DNA of 64,000 nucleotides from a virus, in IMG/VR virus record IMGVR_UViG_3300025137_000014, positions 123,123 to 187,122 of that record. One strand, 5' to 3'. The position numbers were made by a program, and so were the translations under genes. The notes under the pieces are model-generated. The model saw only the letters and a program-made list of their open reading frames with translations. It did not search any database and was not told the DNA's origin. Positions within the stretch are counted from its first letter, which is position 1, and each line of letters opens with the position of its first letter. This document shows, one piece after another, positions 3,702 to 49,362 of the stretch.

Positions 3702-4330
3702 ACAAGAGCCAAATATTTATATTATTACATCATATATCGTTAGCAGTAGGTATAGCAATGTATGGGTTTGAATGGCCATGGGCCATTGTATCATTTTTCT
3801 TTGGAATGTTTTGGGCTTGGGTAGTTGGACATAATATTATTCATTACTATTTTGCTCATGGCAAATATAAAGATAATCTGAAAAGTTATTTTTACACATT
3901 ATTGTCATTAACGTCTGGACTAGGGTCACCGATATCATTTAGTGCATCACATCGACAACATCATAGATTCACAGATACAGAAAAGGATCCGCATTCGCCA
4001 CATCATATAGGCTGGAAACGTGTATACTTTTTAAATTGGGAACCACAGAATATTAATCCTAGGCTTCTTGCTGATTTTGCCAGAAGTAAATTTCAGAAAT
4101 GGGTTCACAAACATTGGTATTATTTACATATTGCAATAGTGCTAGTGATTGCTGTTATAGATTTGAGATTATTATTTTTTGCGTTATCACCTGGTGTTTT
4201 ATATAGTTTCCATAGTGCTAGTTTGACAAATACATTATCTCATATTGGTGGTGTACAGAGAAATGTACAGTTACTAAGACCTCTTGCATGGTGGGGCTGG
4301 AACCACGCTGACCATCATGACTACAAATAA
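3698..4330 (+). CDS. Membrane fatty-acid (delta-9-type) desaturase
   Basis: Three His boxes (HNIIHYYFAH, HRQHH..DTEKDPHSP, NHADHH) and TM segments. Confidence 0.85.
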   Translation: MNKSQIFILLHHISLAVGIAMYGFEWPWAIVSFFFGMFWAWVVGHNIIHYYFAHGKYKDNLKSYFYTLLSLTSGLGSPISFSASHRQHHRFTDTEKDPHSPHHIGWKRVYFLNWEPQNINPRLLADFARSKFQKWVHKHWYYLHIAIVLVIAVIDLRLLFFALSPGVLYSFHSASLTNTLSHIGGVQRNVQLLRPLAWWGWNHADHHDYK

Positions 4331-7555: not shown

Positions 7556-8206
7556 ATGAAAAAAGTTAAAAAAATAATGAGTACAATTATACCAGAACCC
7601 AAAGAACAACCGGCACCGACGCCTCCACCTCCGATGCCAACTCCACCAGTTCCGCCAAAGCCGGCAGGTGAGTTCTTAAGAGAAAATGGTGTATTGTTTA
7701 TGGATAAAGAATTTAATCAAGATAACTGTATGCCTCTTGTAAAAATGATTGTTGAATATAATTTGATGCCAAAAGATAAAGCACCAGAAGTTATTCACTT
7801 GTATATCAATTCACCAGGTGGGTATGTAGATAGTTGTATGCATCTAATTGATACTATCAAGCAATCACGTATACCAGTATATACGTATGGAATGGGGTCT
7901 ATTGCAAGTTGTGGTGTCATGTTAATGATGAGTGGTGCTAAAGGACATCGTTATGTTACACAAAATACCGCAGTCATGTCACATGAATTTTCAGGTGGTA
8001 CAAAAGGTCAATATCACGATATGGTAGAAAGTCGTAAACATATGGACTGGACTAACGAGAAATTAATGGAACACTATATGAAATGTACAGGCAAGACACA
8101 AGCATACATTCGTAAACATATGTTAGCACCTAAGACAGACCATTGGCTTACACCAGAAGAAGCAGTCAAGCATGGTATCGCAGACGAATTAATTACTACT
8201 TACTAA
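7556..8206 (+). CDS. clpP: ATP-dependent Clp protease proteolytic subunit
   Basis: LYINSPGG, IASCG (Ser), MSHEF (His), DHWLTPEEAVKHGIAD; Pro-rich N-terminus. Confidence 0.9.
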   Translation: MKKVKKIMSTIIPEPKEQPAPTPPPPMPTPPVPPKPAGEFLRENGVLFMDKEFNQDNCMPLVKMIVEYNLMPKDKAPEVIHLYINSPGGYVDSCMHLIDTIKQSRIPVYTYGMGSIASCGVMLMMSGAKGHRYVTQNTAVMSHEFSGGTKGQYHDMVESRKHMDWTNEKLMEHYMKCTGKTQAYIRKHMLAPKTDHWLTPEEAVKHGIADELITTY

Positions 8207-36108: not shown

Positions 36109-36462
36109 ATGAAAACATCAATTATTGGACTGCTAGTCGCAGTCTTTTTTTCTGCAAACGCAATGGCAGAAGAATCAAATGTAACAACAAATATCGATTG
36201 GTCTTTAAAACTTGAAAGACAAGTAGAAGCACAAGCCAACACAGGCGAACTAATGGGTACTATGGCTGTTTTTGGACTAGACGTATCAGCAGGCGGTCTA
36301 TGGAATATTGACAAAACAGGTGAAGACTTTATTGACATGAATAAAATTATGTTGAATGCAAGTCGTTCATTGTCTGACAATGCAAGTGTCTATATAAAGA
36401 ATGATTTTGATACTGATTGGGATAGAACTGAGTCAACTATTGGTCTACAGCTTACATTTTAA
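36109..36462 (+). CDS. Small secreted outer-membrane beta-barrel-like protein
   Basis: Signal peptide ending ANAMA, alternating beta pattern, C-terminal GLQLTF; AAGGAGG RBS; promoter TTGACA-18-TATAAT at 36021. Confidence 0.65.
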   Translation: MKTSIIGLLVAVFFSANAMAEESNVTTNIDWSLKLERQVEAQANTGELMGTMAVFGLDVSAGGLWNIDKTGEDFIDMNKIMLNASRSLSDNASVYIKNDFDTDWDRTESTIGLQLTF

Positions 36463-36466
36463 TTTG

Positions 36467-36497
36467 TTGACAAAAACACCACTATAGTGTATAAATA
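36467..36497 (+). promoter_or_regulatory. Composite early/late promoter for tmRNA
   Basis: TTGACA-17-TATAAA(TA): the -10 box doubles as the TATAAATA late motif. Confidence 0.7.
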
Positions 36498-36501
36498 TAG
36501 A

Positions 36502-36786
36502 TGTTAACGTTGAAGCAACGTAGACACATACTGGACTGGGGGGCAGTACCCCACAGCTCCACCATAATTACTTTGTAGCGTAAAAACTACAAATTTACGG
36601 CATAGAGTAATTATGATGGGGCTGATATAGGATCGACAGGTGTGAAAGTGAAGTGGAGTTGACCGAGTGACTTCGTTATTGGTCAAAAACTATAATTGCA
36701 AACGCAAATTATCAGCCAGAAATGGCAATGGCGGCCTAATTTAGGCACGTAGGGGTTGGTGACTTACCTGGCAACAGAAAAGTCAT
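36502..36786 (+). ncRNA. ssrA: Permuted two-piece tmRNA
   Basis: Acceptor piece ends GGGGGCAGTACCCCACAGCTCCACCA (CCA 36562-36564); IVS 36565-36617; coding piece starts GGGGCTGA at 36618; G3:U70 acceptor stem; tag GCA..TAA 36698-36739 = ANANYQPEMAMAA*. Confidence 0.92.
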
Positions 36787-36816
36787 GTTTTATTTAGGAG
36801 TGGGTATTAATATCAT

Positions 36817-37155
36817 ATGGCATATGTAGTTACAGAGGATTGTATCAAATGTAAATACACAGATTGTGTAGAAGTTTGTCCAGTTGATTGTTTTTATGAA
36901 GGTGAAAATATGCTTGTTATTAATCCAGATGAGTGTATTGACTGCGGAGTATGTGAACCGGAATGCCCGGCAGAAGCTATAATACCCGATACGTCCCCAA
37001 AATTTACACAACGACTATATGATATCAATGATAAATGGTCAAGAGAATGGCCAGTCATTACAGAACAAAAAGACCCCTTACCGGATGCTGATAAACTAAA
37101 TCCAGCTATGGGATACACAGAAGATAAAGTAAAGTTGTTAGACGAATATGACTGA
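36817..37155 (+). CDS. fdxA: Ferredoxin (FdxA, 7Fe-type)
   Basis: [21 protein letters not shown]...[12 protein letters not shown]. Confidence 0.93.
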
Positions 37156-39407: not shown

Positions 39408-39719
39408 CATAAGCATCAGAGAGTTTAGCGACTTAATGATTGTAGTGCAAGGAAGAGGCCTTTACCAGAGGGTCGAACTTGACTAGCTAGGGGTGGTACC
39501 CAGGTTCAAAGCTGAGAGGCCAAGAGTCACATCGCTCTACCGAGCGGAACTAGGTTCCCTTATTTCAGATGGTATCTGTGTTATGGGGTTGTAGGTATAA
39601 CCGAATCCTACCTACTTTGCTTATATTTTATGATTGCAATACCAAGCAATCAAAAATTAAGAGACGGTTGGCAAACCATATTTTTACTCACTTTCATTCA
39701 GCCAACTGTCTCTTTTTTT
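39408..39719 (+). ncRNA. Candidate structured non-coding RNA of unknown class
   Basis: GC-richer than flanks; multiple stems (CGCTC-TACC-GAGCG, CAGAT-GGT-ATCTG, GGAAC-TAG-GTTCC, TGACT/AGTCA); 3' pseudoknot; own promoter and terminator. Confidence 0.65.
39661..39719 (+). terminator. 12-bp stem terminator between convergent units
   Basis: GAGACGGTTGGC...GCCAACTGTCTC followed by T7. Confidence 0.7.
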
Positions 39720-45135: not shown

Positions 45136-46407
45136 TTGTCAGATAAAAAAGATTATCATTGTTCATTTTGTGGAAAGCACAAGAATGAAATTAGTACATT
45201 AATTGCAGGTCCGGCAACGTATATCTGTAATGAGTGTATTGACCTATGTCATTCTATTGTACATGAACGCAAGGATGTAACTAAAAAATCTAAAACTGTA
45301 AACAGTGACACTCCGACACCTGATGAAATTAATGAGTTTTTGAATGCTCATGTAATTGGTCAGGAAGAAGCTAAAGAAGTCTTGAGTGTGGCTGTTTACA
45401 ATCATTATAAAAGAATTTCACAACCAGAAGACGATGATGTAGAATTAGAGAAATCTAATGTAATGATGCTTGGTCCTTCTGGTACAGGTAAAACACTCTT
45501 AGCGAAAACAATCGCAAAGTTTTTAGATGTTCCTTTCGCACAAGTTGATGCGACCACATTAACAGAAAGTGGCTATGTAGGTGAAGATGTTGAGAATGTA
45601 ATTCAACGTTTACTTATGTCCTCTGATTTTGAGATTAAGAAAGCAGAACAAGGTATTATCTATATCGATGAAATAGATAAGAAAGCTAAAAAGGGTGAAA
45701 GTATTTCTATCACTAAAGATGTTAGTGGTGAAGGTGTTCAACAAGCCTTACTAAAAATTGTTGAAGGTACGGTTGTTCGTGTTCCGCCAGGTGGTGGAAG
45801 AAAACATCCCGGTGCAGAAATGCTTGAAGTTGATACAAGCAAAATATTATTCATTGTTGGTGGTGCATTTGTAGGACTTGATAAAGTAATTAAACGAAGA
45901 TTGAATGCTAATGGTTCAATTGGTTTTGGTGCTAGAGTTATGTCACAAGACAACAATGATATGAAAGTATCCCAAGAAGTATTGCCAGAAGATGTAATTA
46001 AATATGGTATTATTCCAGAATTTATGGGACGTTTTCCAATACTAGTAGGTATTAATGACTTAACAGAAATTGAGTTAAGCCGAATACTAACAGAGCCAAA
46101 GAATAATTTAACTGCACAATTTAAAAAGATTTTTAAACTAGACGGTGTAGATTTGAATTTTACTGAGGACGCAATAACAGAAATCTCTAAAATGGCAAAA
46201 ACAAATAAGACAGGAGCAAGAGGTCTTAGAAGTGTTTTAGAAAAGTCATTATTAAAACTACAATTCAAATTACCTAAGCTATCAAAGAATGCTGGCTTAA
46301 CGTCTGTTGAAATTACTGGTGACTTTATCAAAAACAAATCAGATCCAATTTTGGTATTTAAGGATGTTGTAGAGGAAACAAAAAATATAAATGAAAAGAA
46401 ACTTTAA
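45136..46407 (+). CDS. clpX: ATP-dependent Clp protease ATP-binding subunit
   Basis: CSFC..C..C zinc domain, [21 protein letters not shown] loop, GARGLR. Confidence 0.97.
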
Positions 46408-46933
46408 GGAAGAAGGGCGAAAGCCTTTCGTCATTGCCAATCAACGTATTCGTGCAGACGAGTTACGTGTGGTAACAGACCAAGGTGAACAACTTGGTGT
46501 CATGCAAAAAGATGAAGCACAACAAAAGGCTGATGCCGAAGGACTAGATTTAGTTCTGATTGTTCCTAATGCAAATCCTCCAGTAGCAAAGATTATTAGT
46601 ATTAATAAATACAACTACGAAATTAAAAAACGTGACAAAGAGAAGGCAAAATTAGCCAGACAAAGTTTAGTTGAAGTTAAAGAAGTTAAGTTTAGACCAG
46701 CTATAGGTGAGAACGACCTAAAGATGAAACTTATGCAGGTTCAAAAGTTTATTGACAAAGGCAATAAAGTAAAAGTGACAATACAAATGAGAGGCAGAGA
46801 GAATTCTAAATCAAGTGAAGTTTTAGATTTCTTCAATTCCCAAATCTCTGAGTACTTAAGTAGTTTTAAGTATGACCTCCCTCTAAAAACTAATGGGAAT
46901 AGAATAATAGGTATAGTAATAAAAAATGACTAG
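46391..46933 (+). CDS. infC: Translation initiation factor IF-3
   Basis: [42 protein letters not shown]. Confidence 0.93.
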
Positions 46934-47201
46934 TTACAATAATAGTTATAAAAGCAGAAATAACAGAAATGACAGGAACGATTTTACACAAACAGGAAAA
47001 TCAGGCCTAACAGTACATGTAAGAGACGGACAATTCGAAAGAGCATTAAGAAAGTTCAAAAAGAAAGTCCAAGAACACGGCATTATACAAGAGGTGCGTG
47101 ACAGAAAGGCTTATGTTAAACCAAGTGAAATTAAACGTAAAGCTAAGGACGCCGGCAAAAAGCGTTGGTACAGAAAAAGAAAAGAGAGTGAATTCCAATA
47201 A
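46926..47201 (+). CDS. rpsU: Ribosomal protein bS21
   Basis: VHVRDGQFERALRKFKKKV..GIIQEVRDRKAYVKPSE. Confidence 0.9.
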   Translation: MTSYNNSYKSRNNRNDRNDFTQTGKSGLTVHVRDGQFERALRKFKKKVQEHGIIQEVRDRKAYVKPSEIKRKAKDAGKKRWYRKRKESEFQ

Positions 47202-48000: not shown

Positions 48001-48438
48001 ATGACAAACGGACTATCTATTTTTAACCAGTTACGACCTGTAACTGTAGGCTTTGACAACATGTTTGACCATTTCGAATCAATGTTCGATGGAAACGGCC
48101 CAACATTTCAAACACAAGTAAACTTCCCACCTTACAACATAGTAAAAACAGGTGATTTCACTTATGATGTAGAACTGGCACTTGCTGGTTTCTCAAAAGA
48201 TGATATTACAGTTGACTATGCTGATAACATCTTATCTGTTAAATCAATCAAAAAAGATGAGAAGAAAGAAGAAGGCGTTCTTCATAGAGGTATCTCTAAG
48301 AGAATGTTTTCTAAATCTTTCACTATCGCAGATGATGTTGAAGTAAAAGGTGCTGAGTTGAAGGACGGGTTACTAAAAGTATCTTTAGAACGTATCGTTC
48401 CAGAAGGTAAAAAGCCTCGTAATATTGAAATCTCATAG
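48001..48438 (+). CDS. Small heat-shock protein Hsp20 (IbpA-like)
   Basis: FPPYNI, ELALAGF, LHRGISKRMF, AELKDGLL; early (47879) and late (47929) promoters. Confidence 0.93.
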   Translation: MTNGLSIFNQLRPVTVGFDNMFDHFESMFDGNGPTFQTQVNFPPYNIVKTGDFTYDVELALAGFSKDDITVDYADNILSVKSIKKDEKKEEGVLHRGISKRMFSKSFTIADDVEVKGAELKDGLLKVSLERIVPEGKKPRNIEIS

Positions 48439-48504
48439 TAGAAAATATTACTTCATAAATAGAAGCGAGGGCTAGTTCCTCGCTTCCTCATGGAGTAATA
48501 TAAA

Positions 48505-49362
48505 ATGAATAAACATACATCTGTATGGTGTCAACCCAGGTCAGGGTCGTCTGCATACTGTAATCATCTAAAAAAAACTAGAAAAGTATTTTCTGACTCT
48601 GCACAAGAGTTTATGTCTGCCTCTCAATTTTGGCCTATGTTGCAAGAACCAGGAACAGACTCAGCAGACAATTTTAAAATGTCAATAGAAAGTTTTCCAT
48701 ACGATAACGAATTAAGAATTAAACTTAAACATGACGCATATAAGATTTATGATAATATAAAAAATACACATAATCCAAAGTGGTTATGGACAGATTGGAA
48801 ACTGACTGATAAAGGTATTAAGCCTTATTATACTAGAAGTATACCAAGACATTATTTAGAAGACACATTCCCTTCAAGACCATGGGCACAAGAACTACTC
48901 ACACAATCAAAAGTACCAGAAGTAATAAAGTTATATAATTATGATAATTTTCAATTTGAAGATATTGCATATGATACAAATCATCATTTATTAATTAGAG
49001 AGCCGTTAGATAACGCATTAAGTCAGATTGTTGCATATATAACTATGGTATGGCATCAAGAAAGTAATGATGAAAATAAAGTAAGAATTAAAGAAACAAT
49101 TAGTTTTAAGCCTATAAAAAATGACCCTCATAAGAAAACACCATATCAAATAGCAGAGTATTGTTTTAAATCTAATATTGATATGTTGGAACAGTTGGGG
49201 GACAAAGTAGATGTTATAGCAAAGTATGAGGATATGGAATTTAAAAATAATCGTTATAAGAAAATGCATACATTACGAGAGAAATTAGCAGTGTGTTCAG
49301 ATTTACATTTCTTAGACGATATGAGAAATAACTATAATAAAAGACTTGATTCATTACTCTAA
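48505..49362 (+). CDS. Sulfotransferase-like protein
   Basis: QPRSGSS 5'-PSB loop, IREPLDNALS 3'-PB, KYED. Confidence 0.6.
   Translation: MNKHTSVWCQPRSGSSAYCNHLKKTRKVFSDSAQEFMSASQFWPMLQEPGTDSADNFKMSIESFPYDNELRIKLKHDAYKIYDNIKNTHNPKWLWTDWKLTDKGIKPYYTRSIPRHYLEDTFPSRPWAQELLTQSKVPEVIKLYNYDNFQFEDIAYDTNHHLLIREPLDNALSQIVAYITMVWHQESNDENKVRIKETISFKPIKNDPHKKTPYQIAEYCFKSNIDMLEQLGDKVDVIAKYEDMEFKNNRYKKMHTLREKLAVCSDLHFLDDMRNNYNKRLDSLL

Follow-up and report, generated by a model that had tools for sequence, protein, structure and literature searches.

A probable ssrA gene for a two-piece tmRNA of the alphaproteobacterial type in a marine T4-like jumbo phage

In this study, we show that a viral DNA stretch of 64 kb (the window, by which we mean the whole stretch that was analysed) contains all sequence and structure parts of a gene for an alphaproteobacterial-type (alpha-type) two-piece tmRNA. 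We consider it highly probable that the gene is a functional ssrA belonging to a T4-like jumbo phage. That phages carry copies of the two-piece tmRNA has been known since 2022, when the phage-borne alpha-type molecule was published for Methylophilales phage Melnitz and for pelagimyophages (Buchholz et al., PMC9004378). What this study adds, on a small scale, is the location of the gene in a jumbo phage that encodes ClpXP, the size of the tmRNA lineage and its finding in phage DNA alone, a conserved composite promoter, and a conserved stem closing the segment predicted to be excised. The gene can be parsed in full and serves as a clean example of ssrA in a marine phage of jumbo size.

The gene was called by ARAGORN as a single permuted tmRNA with the tag ANANYQPEMAMAA, and it was matched over the full model length by two Rfam families, alpha_tmRNA (RF01849; 122.1 bits, cut-off 50, E 9e-33, positions 36454-36788) and tmRNA_permuted (RF04321; 117.8 bits, cut-off 47, positions 36503-36739). 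The match to a two-piece tmRNA is far beyond chance. An earlier note on this DNA had described a phage-encoded permuted tmRNA of the alpha type with its own tag at 36502-36786 and had named ARAGORN and Rfam alpha_tmRNA scans as checks; the two detectors, together with covariation in relatives, bear that description out, and its coordinates lie within a few bases of where the transcript is inferred to start and of the last hairpin. Folding of the precursor gave -98.2 kcal/mol, a z-score of -5.3 relative to shuffled sequences. In this structure the spacer stem prolongs the acceptor stem, and the T arm, P2a and the hairpins at the 5' end, at the stop codon and at the terminus are all recovered.

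The gene order is permuted, the acceptor piece with its terminal CCA (36562-64) lying upstream of GGGGCUG (36618-24), which pairs with CAGCUCC to form an acceptor stem of 7 bp with a G3:U70 wobble (Table 1). The ends of the intervening segment, TAATTACT (36565-72) and AGTAATTA (36607-14), are exact reverse complements and form a long stem that continues the acceptor stem, and the last four bases before G1 are UGAU. The order of the two pieces, the T loop, the CCA end, the self-pairing of the 53-nt segment and G3:U70 had all been pointed out in the earlier note and can be read directly in the sequence, and ARAGORN agrees with it on the tag, the frame of which lies at 36698-36739. The U-rich tract that follows the terminal hairpin was not listed by a consensus scan.

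Table 1. Coordinates of the tmRNA gene, its promoter and associated protein genes (window positions unless marked otherwise).
Feature	Position	Strand	Basis
-35 hexamer TTGACA of tmRNA promoter	36467..36472	+	sequence, relatives, Melnitz
TATAAATA: -10 hexamer TATAAA and match to T4-type late-promoter octamer	36490..36497	+	sequence, relatives
Acceptor piece	36503..36564	+	Rfam alignments, covariation
Inter-piece helix, 5' strand GUUAA (acceptor piece)	36503-07	+	
5' hairpin of acceptor piece	36507-21	+	
P2a, 3' strand (acceptor piece)	36526-33	+	
T arm UGGGG / GGCAGUA / CCCCA	36537-36553	+	read from sequence
Acceptor 3' strand CAGCUCC	36554-36560	+	read from sequence
Discriminator A and encoded CCA	36561-36564	+	read from sequence
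Intervening segment, 53 nt (removal on maturation inferred)	36565..36617	+	fold, end pairing
Coding piece	36618..~36786	+	sequence, Rfam, covariation, fold
Acceptor 5' strand GGGGCUG	36618-36624	+	read from sequence
P2a, 5' strand (coding piece)	36637-43	+	
Pseudoknot-1 region	about 36644-36690	+	
Inter-piece helix, 3' strand UUGAC (coding piece)	36659-63	+	
Tag frame, GCA resume codon to TAA, encoding ANANYQPEMAMAA	36698..36739	+	ARAGORN
Stop-codon hairpin	36734-46	+	fold
Terminal hairpin UGACUU/AAGUCA around conserved loop ACCUGGCAACAGAA	36760-85	+	fold, covariation
U-rich tract UGUUUUAUUU; possible weak intrinsic terminator	36786..36795	+	sequence reading
Ferredoxin (4Fe-4S and DUF3470), directly downstream of tmRNA	36817..37155	+	Pfam
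Phage ClpX	45136..46407	+	NCBIfam ClpX equivalog, 568 bits (cut-off 359)
Weaker ClpP-family gene	7691..8197	+	Pfam CLP_protease
Strong ClpP, outside the window	contig 48253-48798		NCBIfam ClpP subfamily, 287 bits

Comparison with relatives shows that the RNA structure is kept by selection across a large lineage, found here in phage DNA alone. The G3:U70 pair and the discriminator A are invariant in the parsed relatives among the matches listed (80/80), while the acceptor strands around them co-vary (GGGGCUG/CAGCUCC, GGGGUCG/CGACUCC, GGGGCAG/CUGCUCC and others), with compensatory changes at acceptor-stem positions 5 and 6. In an alignment of 41 sequences, P1, the T arm and P2a are paired in every one, and the inter-piece helix GUUAA/UUGAC is paired in 39-41 of them with AU/UA swaps; double changes occur in the T arm and the inter-piece helix and none in P2a. 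The terminal hairpin covaries as well (UGACUU/AAGUCA, CAACGA/UCGUUG, AACGGU/ACCGUU). Among the matches listed, the intervening segment of the subfamily varies in length between 25 and 150 nt; the ends pair in all 50 distinct versions, the mean longest run being 10.3 bp against 5.4 in shuffled segments, with many compensatory changes, and UGAU precedes G1 in nearly all of them. Compensatory changes support five helices, the terminal stem of the intervening segment included. Pseudoknot 1 has partial support, its candidate stems being paired in about 29-38 of the 41 sequences, a stretch in which the alignment is uncertain. An alternative pairing for this pseudoknot, UUGACC/GGUCAA, was rejected, one of its positions being paired in a single sequence of the 41; these bases form the inter-piece helix instead.

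The message is conserved along with the fold. Among the matches listed, all 97 relatives of the subfamily retain resume codon, frame, stop codon and a C-terminal AA; most tags end in ALAA, and the tag bodies vary. The AMAA ending found in the window is rare, occurring in two of these 97.

The earlier note had also read a composite early/late promoter upstream of the gene, and as sequence it is real. TTGACA is separated by 17 nt from TATAAATA, a layout that places the predicted start near 36503, the first base of the acceptor piece. TTGACA-17-TATAAA has 11 of the 12 bases of the sigma-70 consensus (TTGACA, 16-18 nt, TATAAT), the final T being absent, and because of this missing T the promoter was not listed by a consensus promoter scan. 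Among the matches listed, 118 relatives have enough upstream sequence to be counted, and in 59 of them a -35 hexamer (at least five of six bases) stands exactly 17 nt before TATAA[AG]TA; the remainder have either a sigma-70-like pair without the octamer or the late-type motif alone. The same TTGACA-17-TATAAATA layout is present in phage Melnitz. Base composition predicts about 59 copies of TATAAATA in the 187-kb contig, but there are only 10, and nine of these lie outside long ORFs; such depletion and placement are as expected of a functional late-promoter word. The tmRNA site is the only one of the 10 with TTGACA 17 nt upstream, and in all other TTGAC-17 promoters of the contig the -10 hexamer ends in T. 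Because the layout is conserved, TATAAATA is rare and the -35 pairing is unique, the composite reading appears well founded as sequence, and early and late activity is predicted from it. Within the window, TATAAATA sites begin at 3721, 20036, 28750, 36490 and 47929.

A scan of IMG/VR with a T-loop and acceptor pattern returned at least 120 stretches, and ARAGORN called a permuted tmRNA in 72 fetched loci among the matches listed, the window's own excluded. The closest relative among them is 88.5% identical and lies on a 101-kb contig; the tags of the nearest relatives among the matches listed are ANANYEPEMALAA, which belongs to this closest one, and ANDNYAPEMAMAA. A 30-nt signature of the RNA 5' end is found in at least 118 viral contigs of IMG/VR and gave no match in representative genomes of 185,579 cellular species, an exact pattern being a limited test. 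BLAST against 401 sampled alphaproteobacterial species returned just 30-42-nt matches over the T arm and acceptor, so that no searched cellular genome shares more with the phage RNA than this universal segment. On RF01849, cellular alpha tmRNAs score 150-302 bits versus 107-129 bits for the phage copies (those of the window, Melnitz, Phosso and a second copy in Labrenzia sp. OB1). A BLAST search of 50,697 phage records matched only the four Melnitz genomes (76% over 102 nt, annotated SsrA), and megablast of 15 kb around the tmRNA gene returned nothing. Taken together, the signature, BLAST and bit-score results show, within the collections searched, a distinct tmRNA lineage that is found in phage DNA alone rather than a recent capture from a host. 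Global pairwise identity of the whole tmRNA to cellular genes (72-82%) gave no separation and was dropped as a discriminator.

CheckV gives a completeness of 51% for the 187-kb IMG/VR virus record, of which the window forms the last 64 kb, and the genome would therefore be about 360 kb. The contig carries a piece of the terminase large subunit (TerL), a virion protein, a gp32-type SSB and UvsX, the last being 62-66% identical to those of Agrobacterium phage Atu_ph07 and Sinorhizobium phage Phosso and about equally close to those of GAP32, CBB and Vibrio jumbo phages. A clpX-infC-rpsU block lies at 45136-47201 of the window, and the clpX-infC order, common to the window, Atu_ph07 and Phosso, ties this marine contig to that jumbo-phage group. 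Some 27 kb separate the tmRNA gene from the contig end, and its neighbours on either side are phage ORFs on the same strand; given this and the T4-like content of the contig, it is a phage gene and not part of a host flank. The contig has one tRNA gene.

With regard to the proteins that would act with the RNA, no SmpB match was obtained at E <= 1 in the 187-kb contig, which represents about 51% of the genome, or at E <= 0.1 in the contigs of five relatives, one of them 91% complete. The tmRNA would therefore need SmpB, AlaRS, EF-Tu and RNase P from the host. ClpX, the unfoldase that reads ssrA-type C-terminal tags, is encoded in the window with its zinc-finger cysteines and its GYVG, RKH, IGF and DEIDK motifs present. 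It was found in both jumbo-clade contigs tested, namely the window and its nearest relative among the matches listed, and was not found in four other contigs that carry the tmRNA lineage, one of which is 91% complete. The two ClpP-family genes, one within and one outside the window, score 119 and 260 bits on Pfam CLP_protease. The phage ClpX was also tried as a guide to the host and set aside, bacterial and phage homologues all being about 50-56% identical with no lineage signal.

These parts suggest how the gene may work. A single precursor would start about 6 nt after TATAAATA, transcribed early by host sigma-70 on TTGACA-17-TATAAA and late by T4-type late machinery on TATAAATA. The end stem of the intervening segment may present this precursor to host tRNA-processing enzymes, RNase P then cleaving before G1 and the trailer being trimmed to the encoded CCA, and the products would be an acceptor piece of about 62 nt and a coding piece of about 170 nt, joined by the acceptor stem, P2a and a further helix. 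Host AlaRS would charge the RNA via G3:U70, and host SmpB and EF-Tu would bring it to ribosomes that have stalled on broken mRNAs, of which an infected cell should contain many. Translation would resume at GCA and append ANANYQPEMAMAA, and ClpXP, including phage ClpX and ClpP, would degrade the tagged chains, the net effect being that ribosomes are freed and amino acids recycled for phage protein synthesis. One can imagine, in this jumbo clade, a protein tagging and disposal circuit run by the phage itself, in which the tmRNA would act throughout infection on chains stalled on phage-cleaved host mRNAs, phage ClpX and ClpP (possibly tuned to AMAA) would return the amino acids, and phage IF3 and bS21 would direct the ribosomes thus released to phage messages; this larger scheme is speculative and, in our judgment, unlikely.

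Three other explanations of the locus deserve consideration. It could be host DNA, either a host ssrA at a prophage attachment site or an assembly chimera; tmRNA genes commonly serve as integration sites, and the collection may include viral contigs that are prophage ends with host flanks. However, the gene lies far inside a genome of T4-like lytic type, flanked by phage ORFs, its promoter is phage-style, and the same gene order recurs in four independent contigs. Moreover, two independent marine DNA runs contain the tmRNA stretch, one of them with 93% of the sampled words of a 901-nt stretch, and the 30-nt signature was absent from all cellular genomes scanned, which leaves a host origin extremely improbable.

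It could also be a decoy that titrates host SmpB or ribosomes and so shuts down host trans-translation, with no tagging of its own. The lack of an SmpB gene in the contig and in those of the five relatives would fit such a role, as would the 3' part of the RNA, which is reduced relative to cellular alpha tmRNAs, and there is a precedent in the RNA of mycobacteriophage DS6A, which consists of the tRNA-like domain only (PMC4131195) and resembles a molecule shown to inhibit tmRNA (PMC11915505). Yet a decoy needs no message, and here the resume codon, frame, stop and AA are retained without exception in the 97 relatives among the matches listed; the RNA has its stop-codon hairpin, covariation shows that the terminal hairpin is maintained, and the phage encodes ClpXP, the protease that reads such tags. 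We regard a decoy as quite improbable. Marginally less probable still is that the RNA rescues ribosomes with a tag that is not mainly for degradation, serving instead to mark or redirect host proteins, or that the tag is tuned to phage ClpX. The MAA ending, against LAA in most relatives, and the AMAA form shared by so few of those listed speak for this, as does the occurrence of ClpX in both jumbo-clade contigs tested and not in the four other lineage contigs. However, a C-terminal AA after a hydrophobic residue, as in the ssrA tag of E. coli, is the established form recognised by ClpX, and the change from Leu to Met is conservative. A working ssrA gene with a degradation tag hence remains our preferred reading.

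The molecule shares much with the cellular alpha tmRNA (RF01849), the two-piece form of which was reportedly described in Caulobacter crescentus by Keiler, Shapiro and Williams in 2000. Common to both are the permuted order, the encoded CCA, G3:U70, a T loop of the GGC(A/G)GUA type, the GGAUCGAC box, the conserved CAACAGAA loop at the 3' end, and a tag that begins with AN.N and ends in AA. The phage RNA differs in missing about 40 nt after the stop codon and, by our reading of the alignment, in a shorter acceptor piece between the 5' hairpin and P2a and in the loss of part of the extended P2. The intervening segment is 53 nt and stem-closed in the window, as opposed to roughly 6-40 nt in five aligned cellular genes, and cellular alpha tmRNA genes have TATAAT whereas the window gene has a phage promoter.

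In the Melnitz report, 53 two-piece tmRNAs were counted in a set of 18,146 phage genomes, and 50 of the 53 were aquatic (PMC9004378). Melnitz and the window phage are both marine T4-like phages that encode an alpha-type two-piece tmRNA with a long intervening segment and a terminal stem, and their Rfam scores are similar (107 and 122 bits). Melnitz, however, belongs to the Kyanoviridae and has a genome of 141 kb, whereas the window phage, related to Atu_ph07 and Phosso, would be a jumbo phage of about 360 kb; the acceptor piece of Melnitz has a different 5' part, and the Melnitz tag is ANDNYVPVDYALAA. A glutamine riboswitch, reported next to the Melnitz ssrA, was recovered just downstream of that gene here, but was not found in the window phage even at E <= 1. 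Phage ClpX or ClpP has no mention in the available part of the Melnitz report (PMC9004378), a comparison made with the text of the paper. Jumbo phages of Rhizobiaceae with tmRNA genes are the Sinorhizobium phages AP-J-162, for which a tmRNA and clpX next to infC were reported (PMC11242549), and Phosso; like the window phage they are T4-related jumbo phages with clpX adjoining infC, but they are soil phages of higher G+C. The alpha-type two-piece tmRNA of Phosso scores 108 bits and its intervening segment measures roughly 450 nt; Atu_ph07 gave no match. The Phosso gene lies at about 349553-350242 of PV764938.1 on the minus strand, with the tag ANDNVSTKVALAA by eye; it was missed by ARAGORN, and the GenBank record has no feature there. 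One-piece tmRNAs have been known for longer, from mycobacteriophage Bxz1-like phages and Bacillus phage G (PMC4131195). These too are large phages that carry ssrA, and phage G has a ClpX homologue as the window does, but their genes are unpermuted and their hosts Gram-positive.

The earlier note had further taken the tmRNA as a marker of the host, and this part of it holds only weakly. Melnitz carries an alpha-type ssrA and infects a gammaproteobacterial host of the OM43 clade (PMC9004378), and the tmRNA type alone is therefore a weak host marker, which is a warning against assigning hosts to uncultured phages in this way. Kinship to the jumbo phages of Rhizobiaceae gives modest, independent support for an alphaproteobacterial host. 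On the comparisons made here, such phage ssrA genes form a large lineage, found in phage DNA alone and under purifying selection, not a set of recent host captures. Two small conserved features are testable: the promoter that could be read early and late, and the stem closing the segment predicted to be excised.

The ferredoxin gene starts 22 nt past the U tract of the tmRNA and is possibly reached by read-through from it. The order of upstream ORF, tmRNA and ferredoxin is kept only in the four nearest relatives among the matches listed, and linkage of tmRNA and ferredoxin as a general feature was rejected on that count. A manA RNA motif (Rfam RF01745, 58 bits) lies at 39424-39621 of the window, about 2.6 kb downstream of the tmRNA. 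A metatranscriptome contig from one run matches 36614-36751 exactly over 138 nt, and other metatranscriptome contigs match relatives, with a neighbouring ORF covered at similar depth, although assembled contigs of this kind cannot show transcription, RNA ends or processing. Among cellular assemblies, Labrenzia sp. OB1 has a normal tmRNA of 302 bits and, on scaffold NZ_JSEP01000038.1 (19.5 kb), a second, phage-like two-piece tmRNA of 129 bits with the tag VADNDNDWVAAKAVA; this scaffold probably belongs to a phage or prophage. A phage-type alpha tmRNA, its tag being ANDNVAPSGYALAA, was also seen on CAXGOB010000088.1, a 19-kb contig of a Saprospiraceae MAG (a Bacteroidota bin), which is likely a mis-binned phage contig.
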